Shown here one piece after another: positions 1,949 to 39,286 of a stretch of 64,000 bases of DNA. A program made the position numbers and the translations under genes. Each line of letters starts with the position of its first letter. The first letter of the stretch is position 1. The stretch spans positions 283 through 64,282 of the forward strand of contig JANWIW010000027.1 in NCBI GenBank assembly GCA_025449695.1, written 5' to 3'. The notes under the pieces were generated by a model. That model did not search any database and was not told the DNA's origin. It saw only the letters and a list, made by a program, of their open reading frames with translations. Source of the stretch: Minisyncoccota bacterium. GTDB lineage: Bacteria; Patescibacteriota; Minisyncoccia; UBA6257; 2-01-FULL-56-20.

Positions 1949-3226
1949 ATGACGAAGCTATGGCGGCGGCTCGCCGCATATGACTGGTTCGCGCTCGGTC
2001 CCGCGGTACTCGCCTTCTACGCCGCGGATTTCTTTTTAGTACCCGTCCTCGCGCTCCTTGGCGTAAGAATCGGCTTCGCTCTTGAGGGATATGAGTTTTC
2101 CCTGCGTCCTCTTCTCATAGCCCTCCTTGGCGGGGCCGCCCTGGCTGCCGGCTATTGGCTTCTTCCGTTCCGCACCTTCGCCGCGCGCCTCCCGAATCCC
2201 TGGCGCGGGCCGTGGCACAAGGGCCGGGCCAAGTTCGTTTTCCTTGCCATCTTCGGCACGGGACTCGCGGTCAAGGTCATCAAGGTCCTGGCCGGGGGAT
2301 TCTCCCTTGTCCTGCCGAGCCCCTCCTTCATCGCTCATCCTTTCTACAGCACAGTGGGATTCCTGGACCAGGTGAACATCTTCGCGATCGCACTGGCCGC
2401 CGCCTTCGCGCTCCGCCCGCCCGCGGACGATCCCAAGGAGGCCAGGTTCTGGAGGATCGCCTCCCAGGTCGCGATCCTCACCGAGGTGGCATACAACTTC
2501 CCGACCTGCACCCGGACCGCCGTCGTAATACCCCTCCTCGTATGGATCATCGCGGAGTGGTATCTCGGCAAGCGCTCCTACAAGCCCATACTCGCCTTCG
2601 CCGTGGCGATGTGGTTCATCTTCAGCTGGGGCAGCGTGTGCCGTAATCCCCTAGGACTCAGGTCGTACAAGGTGCTGGACAGTTCCCTCGAGGTGCATGT
2701 GGAACATCTGCCGACCTTCGTGACTGATAATGTAGTGGGCCGTTTCAACCAGATGCGCGTCCTCGATCCCATCAGCCGGGACGTGGTCCCGCGCCGCGGT
2801 TTCGCATTCTTGGAGAACGTGCTGGTAAGTATGGGGCCGCCGCGCTTCCTCTGGCATTCCAAGCCGGCAATCAACGCGGATGGCCACGTGCTCGGGGTGA
2901 GGCTCGGTGCGCTCGCGCCTTCGGACACCGTTACTACCATTGGCGCGACCTGGGTCGGCGACTGGTACCTGGCGTTCGGCATATGGAGCGTAGTGATCGG
3001 CATGTTTCTGACCGGCGGCGTGCTGCGGCTTACTTACGAATATTTCATCTCGGCCACGCTCCGCGCCGCGACGGCGGTGGGCGCCTACGCCGCGCTATGG
3101 GTTTTCGTCCTCAGGAGCGTCGAGACGAGCCTCGCTCCCGCAATCGCCGGCAACCTCAAGCTTTTCATCGCGATGTTTCTCATCGCCCTTTTCGCGCGGG
3201 AGTGGCGCAGGACCCCGAAAGCCTGA
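1949..3226 (+). CDS. polytopic membrane protein, possible Wzy-like repeat-unit polymerase
   Basis: About 10 hydrophobic helices in 425 aa; glycan-cluster context; no diagnostic motif recognised. Confidence 0.4.
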   Translation: MTKLWRRLAAYDWFALGPAVLAFYAADFFLVPVLALLGVRIGFALEGYEFSLRPLLIALLGGAALAAGYWLLPFRTFAARLPNPWRGPWHKGRAKFVFLAIFGTGLAVKVIKVLAGGFSLVLPSPSFIAHPFYSTVGFLDQVNIFAIALAAAFALRPPADDPKEARFWRIASQVAILTEVAYNFPTCTRTAVVIPLLVWIIAEWYLGKRSYKPILAFAVAMWFIFSWGSVCRNPLGLRSYKVLDSSLEVHVEHLPTFVTDNVVGRFNQMRVLDPISRDVVPRRGFAFLENVLVSMGPPRFLWHSKPAINADGHVLGVRLGALAPSDTVTTIGATWVGDWYLAFGIWSVVIGMFLTGGVLRLTYEYFISATLRAATAVGAYAALWVFVLRSVETSLAPAIAGNLKLFIAMFLIALFAREWRRTPKA

Positions 3227-3380
3227 TTTGCGGGCGCGGCAGGAACTGCCATAATAACCGTCACGTGTCCCGTTTGAGACACCCTTACCATGCCCAGATT
3301 CTTTAATACAAAACTACCTGCTGGTGCGTCAGGTATGCCGGCAATTCACGGAAACGCTTGCGTTTCCGGTCTCTAACGGG

Positions 3381-5514: not shown

Positions 5515-6387
5515 ATGAAACCCCTTCCGCTAAGCGCTATTGTCCTCACTTACAATGAGGAAGCGAACATAGAAGAGTGCCTGCAGAGCCTCGCCGGCCG
5601 GGTGGACGAGATATTTGTCGTGGACAGCGGCTCGACTGATGGCACTCTCGCGATCGCCAGGCGCTACACGTCCCATATCGCGGAGCATCCCTTCAGGAAC
5701 TGGGCGGACCAGTTCAACTGGGCCGCGGATACGCTGCCATTGAAACATCAGTGGATCATGCGCCTCGATGCCGACGAGCGCATGACGCCGGATGCGTGGC
5801 GGGAGCTCGGGGATCTCTGGCCGAATCTCGGCGAGGATGCCTCCGGCATCGCCATAATGAAAGAGTTCTACTTTATGGGACGGGTCATGAGGCATGGCGG
5901 GCATTTTCTGCCCTGGATACGCCTCTGGCGGCGGGACCGGGCGCATTTCGAGGAGAGGCCCATGGACGAGCATTTGATCTTTTCCTCGGGGCGAGTGACG
6001 ACCCTGAAACACCCTTTCCGGGAGGAGGATCGCAAGGGCTTCCGGGCCTGGCTCACGAAGCACGTGACCTACGCCGAGCGCGAGGTCCAGGCACTGACCG
6101 GTCCCGGCGGCGACCTGGTCGCGCCCGATCTCAAAGGTTCCGCCGTCGCGCGCAAGAAGTGGCTCAAGCAGAACGTGTACCAAAAGCTGCCCCTCTTCGT
6201 CCGTCCCTTCCTCTATTTCTTCTACCGCTACGTGGTGCAAAGGGGCTTCCTCGACGGCAAGGAGGGCTTCATCTTCCACTTCTTCCAGGGGCTCTGGTAC
6301 CGCATGCTTGTGGACGTGAAGCTGTACGAGCTAAGGAAGAATCGACCCTTCGATAAAGCTCAGGGTAAAGAATCGACCCTTCGATAA
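5515..6387 (+). CDS. glycosyltransferase family 2
   Basis: LSAIVLTYNEEANIEECLQSL ... VVDSGSTDGTLAIA (GT2 N-terminal motifs). ATG 5515 follows the epimerase stop. The 3' end contains a 31-bp tandem duplication. Confidence 0.8.
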   Translation: MKPLPLSAIVLTYNEEANIEECLQSLAGRVDEIFVVDSGSTDGTLAIARRYTSHIAEHPFRNWADQFNWAADTLPLKHQWIMRLDADERMTPDAWRELGDLWPNLGEDASGIAIMKEFYFMGRVMRHGGHFLPWIRLWRRDRAHFEERPMDEHLIFSSGRVTTLKHPFREEDRKGFRAWLTKHVTYAEREVQALTGPGGDLVAPDLKGSAVARKKWLKQNVYQKLPLFVRPFLYFFYRYVVQRGFLDGKEGFIFHFFQGLWYRMLVDVKLYELRKNRPFDKAQGKESTLR

Positions 6388-6408
6388 AGCTCAGGGTAAA
6401 GAATCGAG
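6338..6408 (+). repeat. 31-bp tandem duplication, 2.3 copies (AGAATCGACCCTTCGATAAAGCTCAGGGTAA)
   Basis: Exact copies at 6338-6368 and 6369-6399, partial third to 6408; shifts the frame at the GT2 C-terminus. Confidence 0.9.
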
Positions 6409-6498
6409 AATGAACGCGGGAGCTTTGCCGCGTGCCTTAGTTAACTGCGTAAAATGACGAGCGCCGAGCTAAGCTCGGCGTCGCATGTCTTCTCGCGC

Positions 6499-6840
6499 TC
6501 ACGGCGTGAGCAGTACGTTCTGGTGGGTAGAAGTGTACCAGGTCACGCTGGTGCCTTCATTGCCCGATGGTTGGAATTCGAAGCAGATGAACCCTTCGGG
6601 ATCCACGCCCACTTCGCAGGTGTGGCTGTGTGTGGGCAGATCTTCCGAGACTTCTTCGGCCTGGATGGTGCCCTGGGCCCACACTCCCTGACGGTCCGTG
6701 TCGAGGTGTGCCAGGTAGTTCCAATCCACCGAGCACGTGACCTCGAACTGCGCCGGATGCTTGTGCAGCAGGATCCTGCCGCTGGGGTACTGGTCGATCG
6801 TGATCGCGGTGACCGTGAACTGCCGCGTAGTAATGGTCAT
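6499..6840 (-). CDS. hypothetical protein, 113 aa
   Basis: High GC3 in the minus frame; the overlapping plus ORF 6454-6846 is Arg-rich and antisense-like. Contains HSHTCE, possibly metal-binding. No family recognised. Confidence 0.5.
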   Translation of the reverse strand: MTITTRQFTVTAITIDQYPSGRILLHKHPAQFEVTCSVDWNYLAHLDTDRQGVWAQGTIQAEEVSEDLPTHSHTCEVGVDPEGFICFEFQPSGNEGTSVTWYTSTHQNVLLTP

Positions 6841-6936
6841 CCTTGACTCCTCTCTGACGACATAGTGTAGTGGCTCGATTCCTGTCCGTCAACGGCAATT
6901 CCCATTTGGAAGTTTCGCGCTATACTACCAGCACTT

Positions 6937-8670
6937 ATGTTCATCCTGGGGCTGAACGCCTTCCACGGCGACTCTTCCGCCTGCATCGTGAAGGACGGGG
7001 AACTTTTGGCCGCCATCGAGGAGGAGCGCCTGCGCAGGGTAAAGCACTGGGCGGGATTGCCCGTCGAAGCGGTGAGGTTCTGCCTGGACCTCGCGGGCAT
7101 AACTCTGGACCAGGTGGATCGCATCGGCGTGTCGCGCGATCCCCGCGCGAACTTCTGGAAGAAGGTCGGTTTTGCGGTGACCCATGGCTTGAGCCCACGG
7201 GCGATGGCCGGCCGCGCGCGGAACCTCGGCAAAGTGAAAGGGGGAGTGGCGGAAGGTTTGGGCGCGGCGTTCGATATGTCGCCGGCCCTCCTTAGGAAAA
7301 AGATCGTGGGAGTGGAACATCACCGCGCGCACATCGCGAGCGCGTTCCTGGTGTCGCCGTTCGATGACGCCGCGGTGCTCTCGGTGGACGGGATGGGAGA
7401 CTTCGTGAGCACGATGTGGGGCGCGGGGCATGGGAACCGCATCCTTCCCGCCGCCACGGTGGAATATCCGCATTCGCTGGGATTCCTGTACACGGCACTC
7501 ACCCAGTATCTGGGATTCTGGAAGTATGGCGACGAGTACAAGGTGATGGGTCTCTCCGGTTTCGGCACGCCCCGGTTCCTGCCCGAGCTCCGCAAACTGA
7601 TCAGGCTCATGCCGGATGGCGGCTTCCAATTGAACCTGCGCTACTTTGCCCACCGCCGCGCGGTGGTCGGCATGTCCTGGGAAGGCGGCGAGCCGGTCAT
7701 CGGCCGCCTGTTCTCGGAAGAGCTGGAGCGTCTGCTCGGTCCCGCCCGCAGATATGAGGACCCTATTACCAGGGACCATGAGAATATCGCCGCATCGCTC
7801 CAGGCGCTCTACGAGGAGGTGTTCTTCCACATACTGGAAGACCTACACCGGCGGACCGGCTTAACCAAGCTCGCCTTCGCGGGCGGTTGCGCGCAGAACA
7901 GTCTCGCGAACGGCAGGATCTACGCGAATTCCGCGTTCCAAGAAGTGTACGTCCCGCCGGCGGGACATGACGCCGGTACGGCCATCGGCGCGGCTTTCTA
8001 TATCTGGAACCAGGTCCTCGGGAACCGGCGGGGTTTCGAGATGAGGAGTCCCTTCTGGGGCATGGAGTTCGGCGATGCGCAATGCAAGGCAGCGCTCGAC
8101 ACGGCGGGCCTCGCGCCGGAACATCTTGAGGACGACGAGCTCTTCCCGCGCGTCGCGAGGCTCGTCGCGGACGGGAACATCGTCGGTTGGTATCAGGGGC
8201 GCACGGAGTGGGGCCCCCGGGCGCTGGGCGACCGGAGTATCGTGGCCAATCCCGCTTTCCCGGAGATCAAGGAGCGCATGAACCTGAAGATCAAGAAGCG
8301 CGAGCCATTTCGTCCATTCGCGCCCTCCGTCCTTGAAGAGGCGGTGGGCGACTACTTCGAGTCGCACGGCCCCGTGCCGTTCATGGAGAAGGTATACGTT
8401 ATCCGTAAGGAGGTGCGCGATAAGATCCCCGCAGTGGTCCACGTGGACGGCACCGGCCGCCTGCAGACCGTGAGCCGGGATGTGAACCCGCGTTATCACC
8501 GCCTGATCGAAGCGGTCGGCAAGCTAACCGGCGTCCCTATGGTGTTGAACACCTCCTTCAACGAGAACGAGCCGATCGTGAACCGGCCGGAAGAGGCAAT
8601 AGACTGCTTCTTGCGCACCAAAATGGACGCGCTGGTGCTGGGAAACTACCTCGTTGAGCGAAAAACATAA
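6937..8670 (+). CDS. carbamoyltransferase, NodU/CmcH family
   Basis: MFILGLNAFHGDSSACIVKDGELLAAIEEERLRRVKH (Kae1/YgjD-like N-domain) plus a C-terminal carbamoyltransferase domain, 577 aa. Confidence 0.85.
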   Translation: MFILGLNAFHGDSSACIVKDGELLAAIEEERLRRVKHWAGLPVEAVRFCLDLAGITLDQVDRIGVSRDPRANFWKKVGFAVTHGLSPRAMAGRARNLGKVKGGVAEGLGAAFDMSPALLRKKIVGVEHHRAHIASAFLVSPFDDAAVLSVDGMGDFVSTMWGAGHGNRILPAATVEYPHSLGFLYTALTQYLGFWKYGDEYKVMGLSGFGTPRFLPELRKLIRLMPDGGFQLNLRYFAHRRAVVGMSWEGGEPVIGRLFSEELERLLGPARRYEDPITRDHENIAASLQALYEEVFFHILEDLHRRTGLTKLAFAGGCAQNSLANGRIYANSAFQEVYVPPAGHDAGTAIGAAFYIWNQVLGNRRGFEMRSPFWGMEFGDAQCKAALDTAGLAPEHLEDDELFPRVARLVADGNIVGWYQGRTEWGPRALGDRSIVANPAFPEIKERMNLKIKKREPFRPFAPSVLEEAVGDYFESHGPVPFMEKVYVIRKEVRDKIPAVVHVDGTGRLQTVSRDVNPRYHRLIEAVGKLTGVPMVLNTSFNENEPIVNRPEEAIDCFLRTKMDALVLGNYLVERKT

Positions 8671-11117: not shown

Positions 11118-12479
11118 TCAAGCCGTGGTCTGCTCGGATGGGACATGCTTGCCTGCTTCCACGTTCACGAAGAGGTACTTCGCCGTTTTCAGGATAATAG
11201 CCAGGTCCACCAGGAAGGAGCGGTTCTTCACGTAGTAGATGTCGTACTTCAGCTTCTCCCTGGCCTCGTCCAGGGAGGCGGAAGGCCGGAAATTTATCTG
11301 AGCCCAGCCGGTCAGGCCGGGTTTTACCACATGGCGGATGTTGTAGTAGGGAAAGGCCCGGTATTGCTCCACGAGTTCAACCCGTTCCGGCCGCGGGCCG
11401 GTGAAGGAGATGTCCCCGCGGACGACGTTCCAAAGCTGGGGGATCTCATCCAGATGGGTGAGCCTGAGGAGCTTGCCGAACGGCGTGACGCGCCGGTCGT
11501 TTTTCTCCGTCCAGGCGGGCGTGCCGTCGTTCCCGCCCTGCCAGGTGGTCATGGTGCGGAACTTGTAGAGCGTGAATGTCTCGTCGTTCTTGCCCACGCG
11601 CGCCTGCGCGAAGATGGCGGGGCCGCGTGAGGTGAGCTTGATGAGGAACGCGATGAGGAGGGTGAGGGGGATGAGCGCCACAGAGAACGCGACTCCCAGC
11701 ACGAAATCCACAAACCGCTTGACCAGGTCGTAACCCGGGCGGCGAGTCGTGACGTGCTCGAGGAACCAGCCCTCTTCCAGCTCGCCGAGCGGTACGCGCT
11801 CGAAGACCAATTCGTAGAAGTCGGTGAAGTTCACGATGGTCACCCCGAGCGGCAGGAGATCGTATAGGGCTCGTATGGCCGCCGGGTCCTTGGTGAGCGA
11901 AGGTTGGATGATGAGCGTATGCGCGCCGTGCTTCTCGATGAGCCGGGGCAGATCCTCCATTTGCAGGGGCCCGAACTCCTCAATCCATGCCGCCGCCTCG
12001 TAGCCGGCATGGGGATGCTTCTTCAGGAACTTCAGGAGCTCCTCGATCTCCGGAGAGCGGCCGATGACGATGGCGGGGGAGGGACGGAAGCGCGCCACCG
12101 CCAGAAAGGTGCTGCGGAATAAATACTCCCCGGCGATCACGACCGCCGCGAAAAGGAATAGGTTGGTCTTAGGGGTGAGCTGGAAGAGCGACTGGAAAAG
12201 ATAGAAAAGTACGATGGAGACCAGGGCGGCGATGCCCACCGCGGTCATGATCCGGTTCACGAGCGAGTTGTAGTTCACGAACGCCCGCTCGCGGTAGAGG
12301 TCCATGACCATGAATACGAAGAGCCACCCGATGAAGAGCAGGGAGAACGGCGCGAGGTGGATGCGCCAATAGTCCTCGAAATTACGGCCCTGATAGCGTA
12401 TCAAAAGCGTCGCGGCGAGCGCGGCGTAGAGTAATATCACGTCCCCGGCGAGCAGGACGAGCTTCTTTGTCCGGGACAT
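11118..12479 (-). CDS. polyprenyl-phosphate sugar phosphotransferase (Bac_transf; initiating enzyme, WbaP-type)
   Basis: SRGPAIFAQARVGKN ... YKFRTM ... DEIPQLWNVVRGDISFTGPRPERV ... KPGLTGWAQI, plus N-terminal TM helices. Confidence 0.9.
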   Translation of the reverse strand: MSRTKKLVLLAGDVILLYAALAATLLIRYQGRNFEDYWRIHLAPFSLLFIGWLFVFMVMDLYRERAFVNYNSLVNRIMTAVGIAALVSIVLFYLFQSLFQLTPKTNLFLFAAVVIAGEYLFRSTFLAVARFRPSPAIVIGRSPEIEELLKFLKKHPHAGYEAAAWIEEFGPLQMEDLPRLIEKHGAHTLIIQPSLTKDPAAIRALYDLLPLGVTIVNFTDFYELVFERVPLGELEEGWFLEHVTTRRPGYDLVKRFVDFVLGVAFSVALIPLTLLIAFLIKLTSRGPAIFAQARVGKNDETFTLYKFRTMTTWQGGNDGTPAWTEKNDRRVTPFGKLLRLTHLDEIPQLWNVVRGDISFTGPRPERVELVEQYRAFPYYNIRHVVKPGLTGWAQINFRPSASLDEAREKLKYDIYYVKNRSFLVDLAIILKTAKYLFVNVEAGKHVPSEQTTA

Positions 12480-12513
12480 CGTTCTTTATAGTAGCACTGG
12501 GAAACGCCCGGCG

Positions 12514-13983
12514 CTACGAGAATAGGCTGCGGGGATCGAGGTACCTCAAGAGTTCTTCGCGCATGGCGACGAGCGCCGCGCCGTAGACTGCGATGCCCGC
12601 CAGGATGGAAATAATGACGTGCACGCCCATCCGTTCCAGAACGAACACGAACGCTCCCATGAGGAGGCTCGCCGCGGCAATCTTCCCCAGATGCCGCAGC
12701 GTCTGGAAGGGAGCGACTCGCTTCAGTCTCCACCAGGTGAATCCGTTCGCGAGGATCTGCGCGAGGATGGTCGCGACAGCGGAGCCCGCGATCCCCCAGT
12801 GGGGGATGAGTAGGAAGTTGAAGAGCGCGTTGCCGAGGGTGCCTATCGCCAGGAACACGATGGCGCTTCGCTGTTCGTTCTTCGCGAAGATGCCGTTCGC
12901 GAGGAAGGAGGCGGGGAAATGCGTGAGGGCGGTGGCGAGAAGGATCAGGAAGGCCGGGGTCGCCGCCTCGTATTCAGCGCCGAAGAGGAGGACGATGATG
13001 TTCCTCCCGAGAACGAGACCGCCCACGAAGATGGGGATGGCGAGAAAGAAGGCGAAGCTCATGATCCTCTCCATGAGCATCCGGAAGCGATCGCCCTCGA
13101 GGATGGCCAGGCGAGACATGGCCGGGAAGAGGACCGTGGACAGGGTCTGCGGCACCATGTACAGGATGAAGATCGGCCGCTGGGCCGCGCTGTACAGGCC
13201 GAGGGCGGTGGCGTTCATATACCAGCCGAGCATCACGGTGTCCGTGTTCAGCATCAGGCTGCCGAGGAAGCCCATGAGACCGAACGGGATTCCCTCGACG
13301 AGAATCCGCCTCACAAGGCCCTTTTCGAAGTGCCGCCAGAAACCCCAAAAGTGCTTCCAGAGCATCGCATAGGCGAGCACCATGCCGCAGCCCGCGCCGA
13401 GGGTGTAGCCGATCATGAGCGCGAGCGGGCTCGGCTGGAGGATAAGAAGCCCCAGGCCGATGCCGGTGATAGCGACGTTCGTGAAGGTGATGATAAGAGC
13501 CTCGAGCTCCATCCGCTCCGAGGCGCGAGTGAGCGACGTCGTGAAATCCCTCAGGCCGTCGAAAGCGATGAGGAGCGCGGCCCACGGCAGGAGGGCCAGG
13601 GCGCCGCTGATGTTCGTGAAGAAAGGTACCACCGCGAAGAGGAGGATGGTGTTCGCGGCGACGAGTACGAGCTTAATGGCGAAAGACGTGCCCAAGTATG
13701 CGGGCAGCCGGGCGGGATTGCGCGCGCCCTCGCGGGTGAGGATTGAGCTTACCCCGATATCCGAAAAGAGAGAGAAAAAGCCGGCCAGTCCCACCGCGTA
13801 GGAGAACACGCCGTAGCCAGCCGCGCCGAGCACGCGCGCCGCGTAAATGAGAATAACGGCGCGGATGATCCGGCCGCCTATCGTGGACGCGGAGAGCCAA
13901 AAGGTGTTCTTGAACACGGTCTGGCGCATGGAGCTGTTCTCGAAGAGCAGGCTTTTCGCGCGGGGAAAAAATCCAGGCATCAT
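12514..13983 (-). CDS. polysaccharide flippase (Wzx, MOP superfamily)
   Basis: Many TM helices; region MRQTVFKNTFWLSASTIGGRIIRAV is typical of a Wzx N-terminus. Start uncertain: ATG candidates at 13983 and 13929, track start 14079. Confidence 0.75.
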   Translation of the reverse strand: MMPGFFPRAKSLLFENSSMRQTVFKNTFWLSASTIGGRIIRAVILIYAARVLGAAGYGVFSYAVGLAGFFSLFSDIGVSSILTREGARNPARLPAYLGTSFAIKLVLVAANTILLFAVVPFFTNISGALALLPWAALLIAFDGLRDFTTSLTRASERMELEALIITFTNVAITGIGLGLLILQPSPLALMIGYTLGAGCGMVLAYAMLWKHFWGFWRHFEKGLVRRILVEGIPFGLMGFLGSLMLNTDTVMLGWYMNATALGLYSAAQRPIFILYMVPQTLSTVLFPAMSRLAILEGDRFRMLMERIMSFAFFLAIPIFVGGLVLGRNIIVLLFGAEYEAATPAFLILLATALTHFPASFLANGIFAKNEQRSAIVFLAIGTLGNALFNFLLIPHWGIAGSAVATILAQILANGFTWWRLKRVAPFQTLRHLGKIAAASLLMGAFVFVLERMGVHVIISILAGIAVYGAALVAMREELLRYLDPRSLFS

Positions 13984-27226: not shown

Positions 27227-27311
27227 GGAGGGGTCGCATAGCGGTCTAGTGCGCACGCTTGGAAAGCGTGTGTACCGAAAGGTACCGAGGGTTCGAATCC
27301 CTCCCCCTCCG
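27227..27311 (+). tRNA. tRNA-Ser (anticodon GGA)
   Basis: Acceptor GGAGGGG/CCCCTCC, anticodon loop TTGGAAA, long variable arm, T-arm GAGGGTTCGAATCCCTC. Confidence 0.7.
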
Positions 27312-27457
27312 CGAGAAGGTCTTATGAGCGAAGCGAGCTAGGGCTTCTCGCGCCCCGCGCTGCGTCCCGCGAAGCTTTAGCGGAGTGGGATTGCTTTGTA
27401 GAACCTTCGTTCGTTGGGTAGTTTTATTTTTGTGGATTCTATGTTGTACTAAACGGT

Positions 27458-28591
27458 ATGATTGATGAGTGGCAGGAAGCCGAGTCTTTTGAAGGAAGCA
27501 CGCTTCATAGTGCGCTGGGAGGGCCCGCGGAGCATCCCGAGGCGAGCGCCAAAAGCGAGTTCGCAGAGACGATATCCCTTCTCAGGTTTTTGAACGAAGG
27601 GGCTCTTCGGGGCGTACTGACACAGTTTCTGACTCAGTTTCCCGGAAGTAGGGAAAGCATGGAGGCAGTCATAAAGAACGTGGCGCGACGCAAGATAGAG
27701 CAAAGGGATCCCGACGAGATAGACGCAATTCTTGATCAGGCTGACAAGAATGGAGCGAATCCCGAGGCGCTGGTACAAATGCTTATGCAGAGTATCTCGC
27801 TGGGTAATAGCAAATTGCGTAGGGACTGGAGTGTTTTCACGGGCGCGACCGCAAATGTACGTTTCGCGTTGTCACACGTAGAGAACGCGGAAGCCGACGT
27901 CGAGAGTGAGCTGAGAGCCCTCGCAAAGGAGAGGTCGGACCACACGGCCAGTATCACCTTTATGAAAAGACTTATACTGAAGAAGCTGCCGGACAGGGCT
28001 AAGGATATCAAAAGATTCTTCGAAGAATCTGATCTTGCGGCAGCGGAGGTTGATTACCGCGCGAGGATTTTCTTCTCTCATGGCCGCGCGGATCTCCATG
28101 ACGCTGGTCCGAAAGGAAAGCGGATGGAGGAGATACTTTCGACGCTGAAGCATGACAAGAAGGTGGAGGTGTGGCAGGACGTACAGGGCATACAAACAGC
28201 GGATGATTTTCAGGAGCGTATCTTAAACGCTATCATCCATTCCGACCGGGCAGTGGTAATGCTCGGCAACGCCTCCATTCGCAGCGAGTGGGTCTTCAGG
28301 GAAATACAGGCCTTTCAGCTTTATGGAATCGATATCGTGCCAATCCTTGTAGAGGATATTGTCCCGCCCGACCAAGAGAAAGAACCTGAAGCATGGGCCC
28401 GCTATCAGGAGATCCGAGAGCGTATAGGCGCACTCAATTATATTGACGTGCGCAAATTAGAACCCTTGCCCTCTGCCGGGAAGGAAAAAGCTTCGGAATC
28501 GGCGGCATTGCGCAAGAAGATCTCGGGCGATTTCGAGAGACTGCTCCCTTTGAACGATCAGGAGCGTTTCGATCGATTCTATAAAGTCTGA
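27458..28591 (+). CDS. TIR-domain protein (C-terminal TIR, N-terminal helical domain of unknown function)
   Basis: TIR box 1 RIFFSHGRAD and catalytic-Glu motif SIRSEWVFREIQ at about aa 205-340; gene is about 50% GC against about 62% in flanks and follows tRNA-Ser. Confidence 0.7.
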   Translation: MIDEWQEAESFEGSTLHSALGGPAEHPEASAKSEFAETISLLRFLNEGALRGVLTQFLTQFPGSRESMEAVIKNVARRKIEQRDPDEIDAILDQADKNGANPEALVQMLMQSISLGNSKLRRDWSVFTGATANVRFALSHVENAEADVESELRALAKERSDHTASITFMKRLILKKLPDRAKDIKRFFEESDLAAAEVDYRARIFFSHGRADLHDAGPKGKRMEEILSTLKHDKKVEVWQDVQGIQTADDFQERILNAIIHSDRAVVMLGNASIRSEWVFREIQAFQLYGIDIVPILVEDIVPPDQEKEPEAWARYQEIRERIGALNYIDVRKLEPLPSAGKEKASESAALRKKISGDFERLLPLNDQERFDRFYKV

Positions 28592-32267: not shown

Positions 32268-32362
32268 TCATCGATCGAGGGAGAGGGTCTCACCACCCTC
32301 TCCGCTCAACCCAAGCCCATGAACAATGGATTTAGGTTGGGGGCGTGGTATAAAGTAGGCAT

Positions 32363-34150
32363 ATGGGTCCGGAGACCCCTTCGACGGCTTCAATAAGTTC
32401 ACCGCAAGCAAGCTCAGGGCAAGACCGGGTATGCGCGAACTGCAAGGAACGGTTCACACTTGATCCGGATGATTTTTCTTTTTATCAAAAAATAGAGGTC
32501 CCGGCGCCTAGGTTCTGTCCCGCCTGCCGCAATCAGCGCCGGAGAGCATGGCGGAACGACATCTCTTTCTATAAAAGACAGTGCGATCTTTGCAAGAAGA
32601 ACATTGTCTCCCTCTACTCGCCGGACAAGACCCTTACCGTCTATTGCCAGAAATGCTGGTGGTCGGACGCTTGGGACCCGAAAGCTTACGGGCGAGATTT
32701 CGATTTCTCGCGGCCGTTTTTCGAGCAGTACCGCGAGCTTCAGAACGTGGTGCCCCTGATCGCGCTCATGAACGACGATGGGATAGGGAGCATCAACTGC
32801 GAATACACGCAGAACGTATCCTCGGCAAAGAACTGCTACATGGTGTCCTCTTCCTGGAAGAACGAGGAGTGCGCGTACGACATGCAAATATCCGGTCCGG
32901 AGCTTCGCGAGGTGTTCGATTCCCTGGATATCTTCCAGAAGTGCGAGATGGTGTACGACAGCATCTTTCTGGAGAGCTGTTACCGCGTACGAAACTGCTA
33001 CCGATCGTTCGCGCTCGTTGATTGCGCGTTTTGCCTGGAGTGCCGGGATTGCCAGGACTGCTTCATGTGCGTAGGGCTTCGCCGCAAGCGCTACTGTTTC
33101 AAGAACAAGCAGTATACGAAAGAGGAGTACGAGAAGATACTGGCGGAGTACAGGTTAGATACTTGGGACGGCAGGGAGCGCGCCCGGAAAGAATTCCAGG
33201 AGTTCATCCTGGAATATCCCCGCGAGTTCGCTATCCTCCGGAACTGCGTGAACTGTACGGGCGATCAGATGTTCAACTGCAAGAATATGAAGTATTCCTT
33301 CAATGTGCGGGGAAGCGAGGATACGGCATATTTCGAGAACGGTAATATCATCAAGACAGGATACGACATGGCGACAGGCGGCGAGAACGAAGAATGCTAC
33401 GAGGGCATCACTCCCGACAACGACTATCGGGCATTATTCACCATCTTCTCCTGGAAGAACTCGCATGCTGAGTATTGCGAGAATTGCCACTCTGGACAGA
33501 ATCTTTTCGGATGCTCCAGCCTGCGCGGCGCAAAGTACTGCATCTTGAACAAGGAATACACCAAAGAGGATTATCACGAGCTCCGCATCAGAATCGTCGA
33601 GCATATGAAGAAGACCGGGGAATATGGAGAGTTCTTCCCGGCGAAGCTCTCCCATTTTTGTTATAACGAGACCACTGCCCAGATGTATTTCCCGATCACC
33701 AAAGAAGAAGCACTGGCCAAAGGATATCGCTGGCAGGATAGCTTCCAGTTCACGACCGGCAAAGAGACGATCAAGGTAGAAGCTCTGCCCCAGACCATCG
33801 CGGAGGTGGGTGATGGCATTATGAAAGAGGTGCTTGCTTGTACTAACTGCAAACGTAATTACATCATCGTCCATCAGGAGCTCCAATTCTATCGGCGAAT
33901 GAACCTGCCTTTGCCGCGCCAATGTTTCTACTGCCGCAATGACGAGCGAATGCGTCTTCGGAACCCGTTCCGCCTTTGGCAGAGGCAGTGTGACTGCAAG
34001 GGCGCAGGATCGACTAACGGCATATATGCGAACGGAGAACCCCACTTCCACGGGGAAAAGGCATGTCCCAACACGTTCCAAACCCCCTATGCTCCCGAGC
34101 GCCCGGAGATAGTGTATTGTGAAGAATGCTATCAAGCCGAAGTCGTATGA
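32363..34150 (+). CDS. cysteine-rich multi-zinc-ribbon protein, paralog 1 of 4 (unknown function)
   Basis: 595 aa, about 8% Cys. N-terminal CxxC-x14-FYxK-x3-PxPxxCPxCRxQRR ribbon repeated near the C-terminus; central CxxCxDCxxC clusters each followed by YC(I/F)xNK(Q/E)YTKE(E/D)Y; conserved C-terminus PEIVYCExCYQAEVV. Confidence 0.7.
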   Translation: MGPETPSTASISSPQASSGQDRVCANCKERFTLDPDDFSFYQKIEVPAPRFCPACRNQRRRAWRNDISFYKRQCDLCKKNIVSLYSPDKTLTVYCQKCWWSDAWDPKAYGRDFDFSRPFFEQYRELQNVVPLIALMNDDGIGSINCEYTQNVSSAKNCYMVSSSWKNEECAYDMQISGPELREVFDSLDIFQKCEMVYDSIFLESCYRVRNCYRSFALVDCAFCLECRDCQDCFMCVGLRRKRYCFKNKQYTKEEYEKILAEYRLDTWDGRERARKEFQEFILEYPREFAILRNCVNCTGDQMFNCKNMKYSFNVRGSEDTAYFENGNIIKTGYDMATGGENEECYEGITPDNDYRALFTIFSWKNSHAEYCENCHSGQNLFGCSSLRGAKYCILNKEYTKEDYHELRIRIVEHMKKTGEYGEFFPAKLSHFCYNETTAQMYFPITKEEALAKGYRWQDSFQFTTGKETIKVEALPQTIAEVGDGIMKEVLACTNCKRNYIIVHQELQFYRRMNLPLPRQCFYCRNDERMRLRNPFRLWQRQCDCKGAGSTNGIYANGEPHFHGEKACPNTFQTPYAPERPEIVYCEECYQAEVV

Positions 34151-35901
34151 CCGAAACGCGCACTTGCGGTCATTGCCGGAGATCCTTTGTCGTGGAGGCG
34201 GACGATTTCTCGTTCTACGAAAAACTCAACGTGCCGCCTCCGACCTTCTGTCCGGATTGTCGCAAGCAGCGGCGGTTGGCATGGCGCAATGATAGTACGC
34301 TTTACTCAAGAGCTTGCGGTCTTTGCGATAAGAACACGATATCCATCTACGCGCCAAACGGCCCCATGCAGATCGTCTATTGCCAGAAGTGCTGGTGGTC
34401 CGACAAATGGGACCCCAAAGAGTACGGCGCAGAATACGATTTCTCCAAAACTTTCTTCGAGCAGTTTGCGGAACTTCAGCGGCGCGTTCCCGCACTCGCG
34501 ATGACCAATGACGACGGCATTAGCAGTGTCAATTCTGAATATACCCAGGATTTTGCGCGAGCAAAGAACTGCTACATGTGTTTCATCGGCTGGAAGGTGG
34601 AGGACTGCCTGTACGATTTCTACATCATAGGAGGTAAAGAGATAGTAGACGCGATCAACAGCATGGGGGAATGCGAGTACACTTATGAAACCGTCTATAC
34701 GGAGAAGTGCTATCAGAGCAGATATATCTACTCCTCGGTTTCCGTCTCCGACAGCGCTTTTTGTTATGATTGCAGGGACTGCACGGATTGTTTTATGTGC
34801 GTCGGTTTGCGGCACAAGCGGTATTGTTTCAAGAACAAGCAATACACCAAAGAAGAATACGAGAAAATACTTGCCGATTATCGCTTGGACACATACACCG
34901 GCGTGGAGCGTGCGAAGAAGGAGTTCGCGGACGTATTTTTCAGCAAGCCCAGGCGGTTCGCCATGCTCCGTAACTGCTTCAACTGCACTGGTGATGCGCT
35001 GATCAACGGCAAGAACTCAAAATACTGCTTTAACGTGCAGCGCCCCGAAGAAACCCGGTGGGTGGAGAATGGCGATACGCCGAAAGACAGCTACGATTTG
35101 AGCGTGGGAGGCGAGTTGCAGCAATGTTATGAAGGAATCACTCCGGACCATTCGTACCAAAGCCGCTTTGCCATATTTTCCTGGAGGAATACAGATGTTT
35201 CTTATGTCGACGGCTGTCATGCATCCGAACATCTTTTTGGATGTGCGGGCCTTAAGAAGGGACAGTACTGCATTTTCAACAGGCAATATCCGAAAGAGGA
35301 ATACGAGTCATTGGTAAAAAAGATAAAAGCGCAGATGGATGGTATGCCCTACGCCGACCGGCAAGGCATAAGCTACAAGTTTGGGGAGTTCTTCCCTGCG
35401 GAACTCTCCTATTTCCGATACAACGAGACCGTTGCACAGGAATCCTTCCCTCTTACCAAGGAGAAGGCCTCTGCGGAGGGATTGGATTGGCAGGAGCAAT
35501 TCCAGGTCACGATCGGGAAGGAGACGATCGATATCGCTAAGGTCCCCGATGCGATCGCCGACGTACCCGACTCCATAGTGGACGAGGTGCTTGCATGCGC
35601 AGGATGCGCGAGAAATTATCGCATAGTGCCTGCCGAGCTCAAGTTCTATCGCAGGATGAGGATCCCCCTTCCCCGGCGTTGTTTTTACTGTCGTCAGGCA
35701 GACCGGCTGAAATTCAAGAACCCCCATAAACTGTGGCACAGGCAGTGCCAATGCGCAGGAGAAAAGGAAAGCGGTTTCAAGAACACAGCAGCTCATTTCC
35801 ATGGCAAGAATTCTTGCCCCAATGAATTCGAAACCCCTTATGCTCCCGAGAGCCCCGAGATAGTGTATTGTGAACAGTGTTACCAAGCCGAAGTCGTATG
35901 A
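34147..35901 (+). CDS. cysteine-rich multi-zinc-ribbon protein, paralog 2
   Basis: Start MTETRTCGHC overlaps the paralog-1 stop (ATGA); same architecture. Confidence 0.7.
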   Translation: MTETRTCGHCRRSFVVEADDFSFYEKLNVPPPTFCPDCRKQRRLAWRNDSTLYSRACGLCDKNTISIYAPNGPMQIVYCQKCWWSDKWDPKEYGAEYDFSKTFFEQFAELQRRVPALAMTNDDGISSVNSEYTQDFARAKNCYMCFIGWKVEDCLYDFYIIGGKEIVDAINSMGECEYTYETVYTEKCYQSRYIYSSVSVSDSAFCYDCRDCTDCFMCVGLRHKRYCFKNKQYTKEEYEKILADYRLDTYTGVERAKKEFADVFFSKPRRFAMLRNCFNCTGDALINGKNSKYCFNVQRPEETRWVENGDTPKDSYDLSVGGELQQCYEGITPDHSYQSRFAIFSWRNTDVSYVDGCHASEHLFGCAGLKKGQYCIFNRQYPKEEYESLVKKIKAQMDGMPYADRQGISYKFGEFFPAELSYFRYNETVAQESFPLTKEKASAEGLDWQEQFQVTIGKETIDIAKVPDAIADVPDSIVDEVLACAGCARNYRIVPAELKFYRRMRIPLPRRCFYCRQADRLKFKNPHKLWHRQCQCAGEKESGFKNTAAHFHGKNSCPNEFETPYAPESPEIVYCEQCYQAEVV

Positions 35902-37580
35902 CCGAAACGCGCACTTGCCAGAACTGCAGCCAAGGGTTCTCCATAGAGGACGAGGACTTCAATTTCTACAAGAAGATAGAAGTGCCGCCGCCGACTCTCT
36001 GCCCCGACTGCCGCCAACAGCGTCGTATGGCTCATCGAGACAAAAACTATTTTCTAAGAAACTGCGACAAGTGCGGCAAAAGCTCCATTTCCATTTGGCA
36101 CCCCGACATTAAAGGCTATCTTTTTTATTGCAACGATTGCTGGTGGAAGGATGATTGGGATGCCTTCGAGTACGGGCGGGATTTCGACTTCTCTCGTCCG
36201 TTCTTCGAGCAATTCAACGAGCTGTACAAAGCCGTGCCGAAGCATATCTCGAACGCGATGCTTAATATGAAAAACTCCGACTACTGCATCAATGCCTCGC
36301 GGAGCAAAGACTGTTATATGGCTGACGAGATAGACGAATCAGAGCGTTGCGCCTACGGATACTGCGTCCAGAACTGCAAAGACTGCACAGATTGCCTCTA
36401 TGTCAACGAATGCGAGATAGGCTATGAGCTGGTGAAGTGCGATAACAACTATAAGGTTTTCTATGCCTACGATTCACACGCTTGTAATAACTCCGCGTTC
36501 CTGGCTCATTGTCGGGGCGTTTCAAATTCGCTGTTTTGCACCAATAAATACAACGTCACGAATTACTTGTTCAATGAACCCTCCACCGCAGAGGAAGTGA
36601 AGAAGGCCTGGGACGAAATCTTCTGTGGCAAAAACGGCAAACTCCAGGAGGCGCTCGCCAAGTACCAGGAGATCCTCAAGTCCTCCATCTCTCGTCCGCT
36701 TATCGGTACGAACGTCAAGAACTCATCGGGCAATTTTCTGGTTAACGTCCAGAATTGCAAAGACTGTTATTCGATAGACAACAGTATCAACTGTAAATAC
36801 TGCACGGACATCCATCATTCCAAAGACAGCATGGACGTGCATATTTACATCAGCGAACTGAGCTATGAGAGCCTTCACGCCTGGGGTTATAAACAGCTAT
36901 TCTCGCATCTCCTTTGGAACTGCTCCGATGCTACCTACGCCGACGAATGCCATAACAGCCAAGACCTCTTCGCCTGTTGCGGCCTCAAGAAAAAACAGTT
37001 CTGTATCCTCAACAAGCCTTATAGCAAGGAAGAATATCTGGAGTTGAAAGAAAAGATCATTGCCCACATGAAGCAGACCGGCGAGTACGGCGAATACTTT
37101 CCGGTTTCCATGTCGCCGCACGGCTACAACCACACCTTCGCGCAAGAGTTCTATCCGATGACCGAAGGAGAAGTAAAACAGCGCGGCTGGCAATGGCTTC
37201 CTGAAATCAACATCAGGGACAAGTACAAAGACAAAGTGATCACCCAGCTTCCTGATGATATCGCGGAAACCACACCCGCAATCTGTAATGAGATATTCGA
37301 GTGCGAAGCGAGTGGCAGGTTCTATCGGATAATTCCCGATGAGTACCAGTTTTATAAGAAGCACGGCTTGCCCCTGCCGCGTTTGTCGTCTCAAGAGCGC
37401 GACCATCTGCGTTGGGAGAAAACGAAGCCACGCCATCTATGGGACAGGGAATGTGCCTGTGCGAAGCAGTCCCACTTCCACGGGGCCAGCTCTTGCTCCA
37501 ATGCATTTAGGACCACACATGCTCCCGAGAGCCCCGAGATAGTGTATTGTGAGCAGTGTTACCAAGCTGAAGTCGTATGA
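35898..37580 (+). CDS. cysteine-rich multi-zinc-ribbon protein, paralog 3
   Basis: Start MTETRTCQNC overlaps the paralog-2 stop (ATGA); same architecture, more diverged middle. Confidence 0.7.
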   Translation: MTETRTCQNCSQGFSIEDEDFNFYKKIEVPPPTLCPDCRQQRRMAHRDKNYFLRNCDKCGKSSISIWHPDIKGYLFYCNDCWWKDDWDAFEYGRDFDFSRPFFEQFNELYKAVPKHISNAMLNMKNSDYCINASRSKDCYMADEIDESERCAYGYCVQNCKDCTDCLYVNECEIGYELVKCDNNYKVFYAYDSHACNNSAFLAHCRGVSNSLFCTNKYNVTNYLFNEPSTAEEVKKAWDEIFCGKNGKLQEALAKYQEILKSSISRPLIGTNVKNSSGNFLVNVQNCKDCYSIDNSINCKYCTDIHHSKDSMDVHIYISELSYESLHAWGYKQLFSHLLWNCSDATYADECHNSQDLFACCGLKKKQFCILNKPYSKEEYLELKEKIIAHMKQTGEYGEYFPVSMSPHGYNHTFAQEFYPMTEGEVKQRGWQWLPEINIRDKYKDKVITQLPDDIAETTPAICNEIFECEASGRFYRIIPDEYQFYKKHGLPLPRLSSQERDHLRWEKTKPRHLWDRECACAKQSHFHGASSCSNAFRTTHAPESPEIVYCEQCYQAEVV

Positions 37581-39286
37581 GCAACGAAACCAAAACCTGC
37601 CAAAACTGCAAGAAGGAGTTCGTTATCGAACCGGACAACGCCGCGTTCTGCGCGCACATGCAGGTGCCGCTCCCGACCTGGTGCCCGCCCTGCCGCCGCT
37701 TGCGGCGCATGGGCTGGACCGGCTACAGGATCCTCTATAAAAGGAAATGCGCCTACTCGGGGGAGGATATCATCACCTTCTACCATCCCAACGCTCCGTA
37801 TGTGATCTACAAGCAGGACATATGGTGGAGCGACAAGTGGGACCCCAAGAGCTACGGACGGGACTACGATTTCTCCAAGCCGTTCTTCCAGCAGTTCGAC
37901 GAGCTTCTGCGGTCGGTGCCCCTGCCCTCGCTCCATACGGAGTACACGACTCTCGTGAACAGCGACTACTGCAATGCCGTAGGGGGCCTGAAGAACTGCT
38001 ATCTGGTCTTCCAGTCCGGGGACGGGGCCTCGCATATAGGCCACGAGAATACGGCATACATGCACATGGTGGACGACACGAAGGACAGCATGGACATGTC
38101 CTTCTCCTCGAACTGCGAGCTTTGCTACGAGTGCGTGCGCTGCTTTGGATGCTTCCGGGCGCGCTGGTCCGCGAACTGCGACGAATGCCATAACGTCGCG
38201 TTTTGCCAGAGCTGCATTGGCTGTTCCGACTGCGTCGGCTGCGTGAATTTAAAGAACAAGTCGTATTGCATCTTCAACGAGCAGTATTCCAAGGAAGAGT
38301 ACGAGCGCAAGCTGAAGGAGCTCGATCTGGGATCCCGCGAAGGATTGGACAGGTTCGCGGTGGAATTCGCCAAGTTCGCGGAAAAGATGCCCCATCGCAT
38401 GTTCTACGGCCGGCACAACACTTCTACTTCCGGCGACTACATCTCCAATTCCAAGAACGTCCACGATTCCTACATCGTCCATGGCGCAGAGAACGTGCGC
38501 TACGGGCAGCTGCTGAGCGCGCCCGCGGCCAACGCCTACGACTACACGCTCTTCGGCACGTTTGCGGAGTGGATCTACGAATGCGCGTGGAATGGCTTGA
38601 GCAGCAACACGCTCAAGTTCTGCTTCTGGAACTACCACGCCCATCATCTTGATTACTCCCTCGGCTGCCACGGGTCGGAGAACCTGTTCGGCTGCGTGGG
38701 GGTTCGCAAGGGCTCCTATTGCATCTTGAACAAGCAATATTCCAGGGAGGAGTATCAGGAACTCGTCGCGGATATAAAACAGCAGATGGCGGAAATGCCC
38801 TACGTGGACCGCCTGGGCCGGAACTACTCGTACGGGGAGTTCTTCCCGCCGGAGATATCGCCCTGGACCTTCAACGAGTCTATGGCGTCCCTGGGCTTCC
38901 TCCCTTTGTCCCGCGAGGAAGCCCTGGCGCAGGGGTTTAACTGGCGCGAGGATGATGGCCGCCAGTATCGGGAGCCGACCGCGCCGGTACCGGCAAGTAT
39001 CAAGGATGTTCCCGAAGATTTCTCCAAGGAGATACTGAAGTGCGAGTATTGCGGTAAGAACTACCAGATCATCCCCATGGAATTGGATTTCTATCGCCAG
39101 TGGGACGTTCCCATCCCTTTGCGCTGCCCCTTGTGCAGGGAGAAAGACAGGGTCGCCAGCCTGAACCCCATGGCCATCTACGACCGGGAGTGCATGAAGT
39201 GCGGCAAGTCCATTCAAACCTCCTACGCGCCAGAAAGGAAAGAGATTGTATATTGCGAGACCTGCTATCAAAACGAAGTTGCATAG
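37577..39286 (+). CDS. cysteine-rich multi-zinc-ribbon protein, paralog 4
   Basis: Start MSNETKTCQNC overlaps the paralog-3 stop (ATGA); CIGCSDCVGCVNLKNKSYCIFNEQYSKEEYE; C-terminus IVYCETCYQNEVA. Confidence 0.7.
   Translation: MSNETKTCQNCKKEFVIEPDNAAFCAHMQVPLPTWCPPCRRLRRMGWTGYRILYKRKCAYSGEDIITFYHPNAPYVIYKQDIWWSDKWDPKSYGRDYDFSKPFFQQFDELLRSVPLPSLHTEYTTLVNSDYCNAVGGLKNCYLVFQSGDGASHIGHENTAYMHMVDDTKDSMDMSFSSNCELCYECVRCFGCFRARWSANCDECHNVAFCQSCIGCSDCVGCVNLKNKSYCIFNEQYSKEEYERKLKELDLGSREGLDRFAVEFAKFAEKMPHRMFYGRHNTSTSGDYISNSKNVHDSYIVHGAENVRYGQLLSAPAANAYDYTLFGTFAEWIYECAWNGLSSNTLKFCFWNYHAHHLDYSLGCHGSENLFGCVGVRKGSYCILNKQYSREEYQELVADIKQQMAEMPYVDRLGRNYSYGEFFPPEISPWTFNESMASLGFLPLSREEALAQGFNWREDDGRQYREPTAPVPASIKDVPEDFSKEILKCEYCGKNYQIIPMELDFYRQWDVPIPLRCPLCREKDRVASLNPMAIYDRECMKCGKSIQTSYAPERKEIVYCETCYQNEVA

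Follow-up and report, generated by a model that had tools for sequence, protein, structure and literature searches.

Interlocus (ectopic) gene conversion and concerted evolution occur in bacterial multigene families such as the duplicated tuf genes, the ribosomal RNA operons and tandem surface-protein families. Here, we describe four tandem paralogs in the genome of a Minisyncoccota bacterium (Patescibacteriota), on a stretch of 64,000 nucleotides (nt) of contig JANWIW010000027.1 (assembly GCA_025449695.1, positions 283 to 64,282). This whole stretch is referred to as the window, and all positions given for the array are window positions. The paralogs are nearly identical in nucleotide sequence in short patches at the gene boundaries, while their interiors have diverged heavily. 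We consider it likely that these junction cassettes were produced by short-tract (~60-80 nt) gene conversion, that is, by non-reciprocal homologous recombination between four diverged tandem paralogs. This is a known process with a textbook mechanism in a new setting, an uncharacterised gene family that occurs in tandem across the Patescibacteria. A search of the literature on this family, or on gene conversion in Patescibacteria, returned nothing relevant.

The array occupies positions 32363-39286 and consists of four same-strand genes, designated p1 to p4, which are chained by ATGA stop/start overlaps at 34147, 35898 and 37577. All four copies are full-length open reading frames (ORFs) with start and stop codons:

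32363-34150, + strand: paralog p1, 595 amino acids (aa); first gene of the array, with a long N-terminus of its own and a -10-like box upstream
34147-35901, + strand: paralog p2, 584 aa; its ATG and the stop codon of p1 overlap (ATGA), and its orthologs in other Patescibacteria genomes are 60-69% identical in aa
35898-37580, + strand: paralog p3, 560 aa; diverged furthest of the four (38% identical to p2 in aa), with a head and a tail that match p2 in nucleotides
37577-39286, + strand: paralog p4, 569 aa; last gene, with the same C-terminal protein motif in codons that are not homogenised

Between the four copies, identity is 33-56% at the protein level and 46-62% at the nucleotide level, and where interior residues are identical, only about half are encoded by the same codon. 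p2 is closer to its orthologs in other genomes (60-69% aa) than to p1 (55%) or p3 (38%), and the duplications are therefore old. Judged by these comparisons, the four tandem copies arose long ago and have diverged greatly; the gene, rich in zinc fingers and uncharacterised, belongs to a genome of the Patescibacteria, also called the candidate phyla radiation (CPR).

Nucleotide identity at the gene junctions

Three junction blocks, J1 to J3, were delimited at the internal gene boundaries:

34088-34167, + strand: J1 (p1 tail, ATGA, p2 head), 74/80 identical to J2 and exact over 34133-34167
35839-35918, + strand: J2 (p2 tail, ATGA, p3 head), with 80 nt in common with J1; its part up to the stop codon, 35840-35901, is 60/62 identical to J3
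37519-37580, + strand: J3 (p3 tail up to ATGA), 60/62 identical to J2, with identity that stops exactly at the stop codon

The last 62 nt of p2 and p3 (35840-35901 and 37519-37580) thus differ at only two positions, at offsets -28 and -13, and both differences are synonymous. Flanking this block, identity is ~53% just upstream and ~35% just downstream of the stop codon; beyond J3, the head of p4 is unrelated at the nucleotide level. Across the stop and start codons, J1 and J2 match exactly over a run of 35 nt (34133-34167 = 35884-35918). In addition, a 32-nt cassette core is confined to the two expected sites in the window, where chance alone would give 0. The original prediction had described the last ~60 nt of p1, p2 and p3 as nearly identical and the first ~25 nt of p2 and p3 as identical. 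The first description is accurate for p2 and p3 but not for p1, whose tail differs from that of p2 at 6/62 positions and from that of p3 at 8/62 (87-89% identity to both), and the consensus quoted with it applies to p2 and p3 alone. Identity of the p2 and p3 heads is confirmed, though over 21 nt and not 25.

At the protein level, the blocks encode YAPExPEIVYCExCYQxEVV, a treble-clef zinc-finger motif at the C-terminus, and M-x-ET-x-x-C at the N-terminus. No other parts of the genes are kept similar in nucleotides by protein conservation, and the tracts, which can cross the ATGA overlap, cover these. p4 has the same C-terminal motif as the other copies (YAPERKEIVYCETCYQNEVA), encoded by different codons. 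In ESP, the tails of p2 and p3 also both carry a rare Ser (AGC) at a position that is Arg in the family.

The identity of the p2-p3 tails exceeded that of the interiors at the codon level. Of the 19 conserved codons among the final 20, 17 were identical, compared with 85 of 187 (45%) in the interior (binomial P = 8e-5; codon-usage null P = 1e-5; scan-corrected permutation P = 0.014). Synonymous divergence (dS) of the tail was 0.19, and interior synonymous sites were saturated (proportion of synonymous differences, pS, 0.79). This contrast between junction and interior was the check proposed with the original prediction, and it bears out the claim that nucleotide identity goes beyond what the protein requires. 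Two internal controls came from the array itself: between the p4 tail and the other tails, only 4-6 of 14-16 codons were identical, and an interior block of p1 and p2 with 95% aa identity was only 80-82% identical in nucleotides, with 9 of 19 codons identical. At the heads of p2 and p3, all six codons after the ATG were identical, for which a probability of ~0.0025 was calculated from codon usage. Even in unconverted pairs such as p3-p4, the most similar stretches were the heads, a motif ~100 codons into the gene and the tails. These results collectively demonstrate that the patches exist and that identity in the p2-p3 tail and in the J1/J2 junction run is beyond the requirement of the protein and the expectation from codon bias.

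Family-wide comparison of tandem arrays

More than 5,300 homologs of p2 were found at E <= 1e-5, essentially all in Patescibacteria genomes and metagenomes and annotated as hypothetical, and the family is apparently restricted to this group. The nearest non-self homolog of p2 was 69% identical, and no strain-level relatives were found. The comparison set comprised 85 sequences, namely the window and 84 further loci (80 from GTDB species-representative genomes and 4 contigs encoding two close p2 homologs). Two or more same-strand family genes were present in 57 of the 85 sequences, with as many as nine copies in a span of 18 kb and frequent ATGA overlaps, and array size varied from 1 to 9 copies across genomes. 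Tandem arrays of 2-9 copies were common and take up a sizeable share of such small genomes.

Over the last 60 nt of the genes, none of 21,242 between-genome pairs exceeded 54/60, many of them with 19-20 identical residues, and p2-p3, with 57/60, tied for the top rank among 286 within-array pairs. Exact matches of at least 34 nt occurred at 0.065 per pair within arrays compared with 0.001 per pair (0.1%) between genomes; the exact 35-nt run of J1 and J2 falls in this class. Furthermore, 17 of the 27 within-array exact matches of at least 30 nt were located at gene termini.

Several other arrays carried patches at their own junctions. In locus L029 (6500-6610 and 8275-8385), a 106-nt exact block runs through the tail, the stop codon, the spacer and the next head of genes that are 42-45% identical. 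Locus L017 (6170-6255 and 7930-8015) contains 68-nt and 74-nt exact junction-spanning blocks at different offsets, likewise between genes of 42-45% identity, L074 has 37 identical nt at the heads and L009 has a 36-nt tail block. The junction patches of each lineage had their own sequence and their own tract position, as expected of sporadic conversion and not of a conserved element. In L077, 565 nt are repeated exactly inside two copies (411-976 and 2743-3308), which reflects conversion or duplication in the very recent past or else a fault of the assembly.

Changes in array organisation were observed in three related genomes (L014, L018 and L023), in which orthologs are 80-94% identical in nucleotides and the arrays are composed and ordered differently, the breaks falling at gene junctions. 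A chimeric junction is seen between L018 (13300-13510) and L023 (7845-8055 and 11616-11826). The body of the L018 gene at 11668-13453 is orthologous to the L023 gene at 6174-7995 (90.6% nucleotide identity); its last ~30 nt, the stop codon and a 27-nt spacer match the junction of another paralog, L023 10008-11766 (56/60). On this alignment, the L018 gene carries a swapped, chimeric junction relative to L023. Cassette shuffling, one of the processes put forward in the original prediction, finds indirect support in the junction breakpoints and the swapped junction of these other Patescibacteria lineages, and nothing within the window points to it.

Explanations for the junction identity

One account of the identity would be chance given the protein, that is, aa conservation of the C-terminal zinc finger combined with codon bias. 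Few parts of the family are as conserved as the tail motif, and residues with two-fold degenerate codons (Cys, Tyr, Glu and Gln) are frequent in it; moreover, neither the p1-p3 tail (12/17 codons identical) nor the p1-p2 tail alone was significant after correction. For p2-p3, however, the codon-usage null gave P = 1e-5, and the observed 57/60 lies above the maximum of 54/60 among all between-genome tail pairs. The motif is written with other codons in p4 and in the orthologs, p2 and p3 both carry the rare AGC serine in place of the family arginine, and the exact 35-nt run passes the stop codon into a poorly conserved N-terminal stretch. This account is thus refuted for p2-p3 and for the J1/J2 run, and we give it next to no credence for the junctions as a whole. 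Alternatively, each internal junction could hold a cis-acting RNA or DNA element under selection, such as one that promotes termination-reinitiation at the ATGA, and purifying selection or selected spread of the element could keep the nucleotides identical. The three internal junctions are all ATGA overlaps without a Shine-Dalgarno-like sequence, as window genes generally are without one, and translation of p2-p4 is therefore plausibly dependent on coupling. The sole tail that was not homogenised, that of p4, is also without a downstream family gene. However, the three junction RNAs folded no better than shuffled sequences (z = 0.05, 0.58 and 0.43) and gave different minimum-free-energy structures, and a search of Rfam produced no match at gathering score or at E <= 1. 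J3 has only the upstream half of the J2 block, and the patches of other genomes are unrelated in sequence and variable in position. Across the family, internal tails (with a downstream copy) and terminal tails did not differ in similarity (Mann-Whitney U test P = 0.36; residuals P = 0.95). In 104 between-genome ortholog-like pairs, synonymous codon identity was 0.508 in the tail and 0.542 in the interior, and there is therefore no nucleotide-level constraint on the tail. In the closest ortholog pairs, the tail was even more diverged than the body (13/17 vs 473/501 and 6/12 vs 404/490), which is the signature expected if tails are overwritten from paralogs. Furthermore, ATGA coupling needs only the overlap and a few bases and does not account for 62-80 nt of synonymous identity. 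The conserved RNA element controlling re-initiation that the original prediction offered as an alternative is thus not supported, with neither a stable or shared fold nor constraint on ortholog tails behind it, and we regard any selected element of this kind as very unlikely.

Reciprocal unequal crossing-over, or partial tandem duplication, with breakpoints in the conserved termini would leave shared ends inherited from one parent copy, and it fits the variation in array size from one to nine copies, the differences in array order and membership among related genomes with breakpoints at junctions, and the gene with a swapped tail and spacer. In p3, however, both the head and the tail match p2 and the body is unrelated to it at synonymous sites. 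Such a pattern calls for an exchange on either side of the body, which amounts formally to a conversion-like double event, and a duplication would have carried a body along; we therefore consider this origin of the window patches unlikely. Gene conversion accommodates the discordance between tract and gene history, in which p2 is 60-69% identical to its orthologs in aa and 38% identical to p3, yet the p2 and p3 tails are near-identical and the edges of the tract are sharp. The restriction of synonymous near-identity to sharply bounded patches, together with the different codons used for the same motif in p4 and in orthologs, upholds the homogenisation between copies, described as ongoing, that the original prediction had suggested. 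Taken together, these results demonstrate that the patches are discordant with the history of the genes, specific to lineages and free of constraint in orthologs.

Two further candidate causes of the identity were rejected. Programmed frameshifting was discarded because no slippery heptamer is present at GTCGTATGACC and no structure lies downstream of it; antisense or overlapping-frame ORFs were discarded because antisense ORFs overlap the three junctions inconsistently and a possible seven-codon upstream extension of p2 and p3 would cover only 21 nt and is closed by a stop codon at J3.

Under gene conversion, the conserved ends that encode treble-clef-like zinc fingers would supply the local identity that seeds recombination, and the ~45-50% identical interiors would halt extension of the heteroduplex, so that only the ends are overwritten. 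At least two events would be needed in the window. One would have produced the young patch common to the tails of p2 and p3 (2 differences in 62 nt), and another the junction-spanning patch common to p1-tail/p2-head and p2-tail/p3-head (exact over 35 nt). The rare serine codon in p2 and p3 points to common descent of both tails, and p2 is more likely than p3 to have donated the head, since TETRTC is also encoded, in other codons, by the nearest ortholog of p2. The identity would then be a by-product of recombination, and it could in turn serve as a substrate for unequal crossing-over that deletes, duplicates or reorders gene units.

Several points weigh against this explanation. Taken alone, the p1-p2 tail (15/18 codons identical) was not significant (scan-corrected P = 0.27). 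The tail of p4 is both the only unconverted tail and the only one without a downstream family gene, and within the window, conversion and selection for a junction function therefore predict the same pattern. With the best p2 ortholog only 69% identical, the event is undatable here and donor and recipient are not demonstrable, and the contig is probably metagenome-assembled. Finally, conversion cannot be separated from crossing-over for the J1/J2 patch, nor from a double crossover in general.

A further, speculative reading is that the nucleotide-identical termini are more than a by-product and act as recombination anchors that let gene units or variable interiors be swapped, duplicated or deleted within arrays. 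It is compatible with the junction breakpoints at which related genomes differ in array order and content, and with the single junction swap, and we hold it to be possible but rather improbable. If true, the arrays, each of 1-9 copies, would provide Patescibacteria with a lineage-specific family of zinc-finger-rich proteins whose repertoire evolves fast and which may be connected with host/episymbiont interaction or with nucleic-acid recognition.

For practical purposes, junction identity that reflects recombinational homogenisation, as we favour, and not a new regulatory RNA means that gene termini should be masked in annotation and phylogeny of the family. It also means that small Patescibacteria genomes keep dynamic tandem arrays of a large uncharacterised family, reshaped at gene boundaries by homologous recombination, and the family is a candidate for studying gene-family dynamics in CPR bacteria.

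Encoded proteins, gene starts and known systems

Proteins of the family are ~570-600 aa long and contain 34-39 Cys. Searches of Pfam, NCBIfam, PADLOC and PDB sequences with the four proteins of the array returned only sub-threshold zinc-finger matches. In Pfam, zf_Tbcl and zf_Tbcl_2 were matched below the gathering threshold by the N-terminus of p2 (19.4 bits; cutoff 24) and the C-terminus of p4 (24.3 bits; cutoff 27). The termini thus resemble the zf_Tbcl/zf_Tbcl_2 treble-clef domain, with conserved CxxC...CxxC spacing, and membership is not established by these scores. p2 was modelled with AlphaFold2 (predicted local distance difference test score, pLDDT, 81.8; predicted template modelling score, pTM, 0.84), and a Foldseek search of the PDB with this model gave no match at E <= 0.001. 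With no match in sequence or fold, no function can therefore be assigned to p2. Four CxxC...CxxC cysteine modules were recognised, at residues 7/10/35/38, 57/60/79/82, 484/487/512/515 and 534/557/575/578 (p2 numbering). p3 is without three of the four Cys of module 3 (487, 512 and 515), and p4 is without three of the four of module 2 (60, 79 and 82); in every copy, the terminal modules, which lie within the converted patches, remain intact. The proteins showed neither a signal peptide nor a membrane segment (maximum Kyte-Doolittle 19-residue mean 1.32), and the N-terminus is a zinc ribbon; the proteins are presumably cytoplasmic.

An internal repeat was also observed. The motif YC(I/F)xNKxY(T/S)KEEYE occurs twice, 444-453 nt apart, in p1 (33092-33139 and 33536-33583), p2 (34822-34869 and 35266-35313) and p4 (38264-38311 and 38717-38764), and a single copy was detected in p3 (36999-37046). 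The family may have arisen by an ancient intragenic duplication.

The ATGA overlaps probably couple the translation of p2-p4 by termination-reinitiation. Upstream of the array, one candidate promoter element was noted:

32349-32354, + strand: TATAAA after a TGn, with its end 8 nt upstream of the p1 ATG; candidate for an extended -10 box, from reading of the sequence only

Transcription from such a box would yield an operon mRNA with no leader or almost none. When the array was scanned for promoters and terminators, the results were at or below the shuffle expectation. A TATAAT-like box ending 6-12 nt before the ATG, with no Shine-Dalgarno-like sequence, was seen at ~10 of 24 inspected gene starts in the window, for example before p1 and upstream of 40520, 1949, 6937, 48040, 12479 (- strand), 43093 (- strand) and 51086 (- strand). 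This pattern suggests that leaderless or near-leaderless mRNAs are widespread in this genome, which would make ATGA coupling important for the internal genes of operons.

p2 and p3 also have in-frame upstream starts (ATG at 34126 and GTG at 35877) that could add seven residues, (M/V)L(S/P)SRSR, encoded at 34126-34146 and 35877-35897. This extension would overlap the tail of the upstream gene in another frame, and at J3 a GCC-to-GCT difference creates a TGA in the frame of the extension. Alignments of the family favour the ATGA start over the upstream ATG or GTG.

The genes that neighbour the array are housekeeping genes (Dus, Maf and NUDIX), and gene context is not conserved between genomes. 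Elsewhere in the window, directly downstream of a transfer RNA gene (tRNA-Ser, 27227-27312), a 377-aa ORF at 27458-28591 encodes a C-terminal TIR domain (PF13676, E = 2.6e-12) with a weak ThsB-like match; it may be a defence-related gene or part of a defence island.

Compared with described systems, the array resembles operons with ATGA translational coupling in the overlaps at its three internal junctions and at many family junctions in other genomes. It differs from them in the 62-80 nt of synonymous identity, for which no associated structure or cross-genome conservation was found. The cassette systems of antigenic variation (Neisseria pilE/pilS, Borrelia vlsE and Anaplasma msp2) are alike in having tandem units with conserved ends and variable interiors and recombination anchored in the ends. 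In contrast, the array described here consists of four complete, translationally coupled ORFs and not of an expression site with silent cassettes, its zinc-finger-rich proteins are without a signal peptide or membrane segment, and exchange affects the conserved ends and not the variable middles.

The differences from interlocus gene conversion as described in other bacteria concern scale and setting. The paralogs here are only 33-56% identical in aa, conversion is limited to terminal patches of ~20-100 nt and whole genes are not homogenised; the tracts can span the stop/start overlap of adjacent genes, and the host is a reduced Patescibacteria genome with an uncharacterised family. The likeness lies in the tracts themselves: near-identity is sharply bounded and includes synonymous sites between otherwise diverged paralogs, the history of the tracts disagrees with that of the genes, the tracts lie where prior similarity was highest, and the patches are specific to each lineage.

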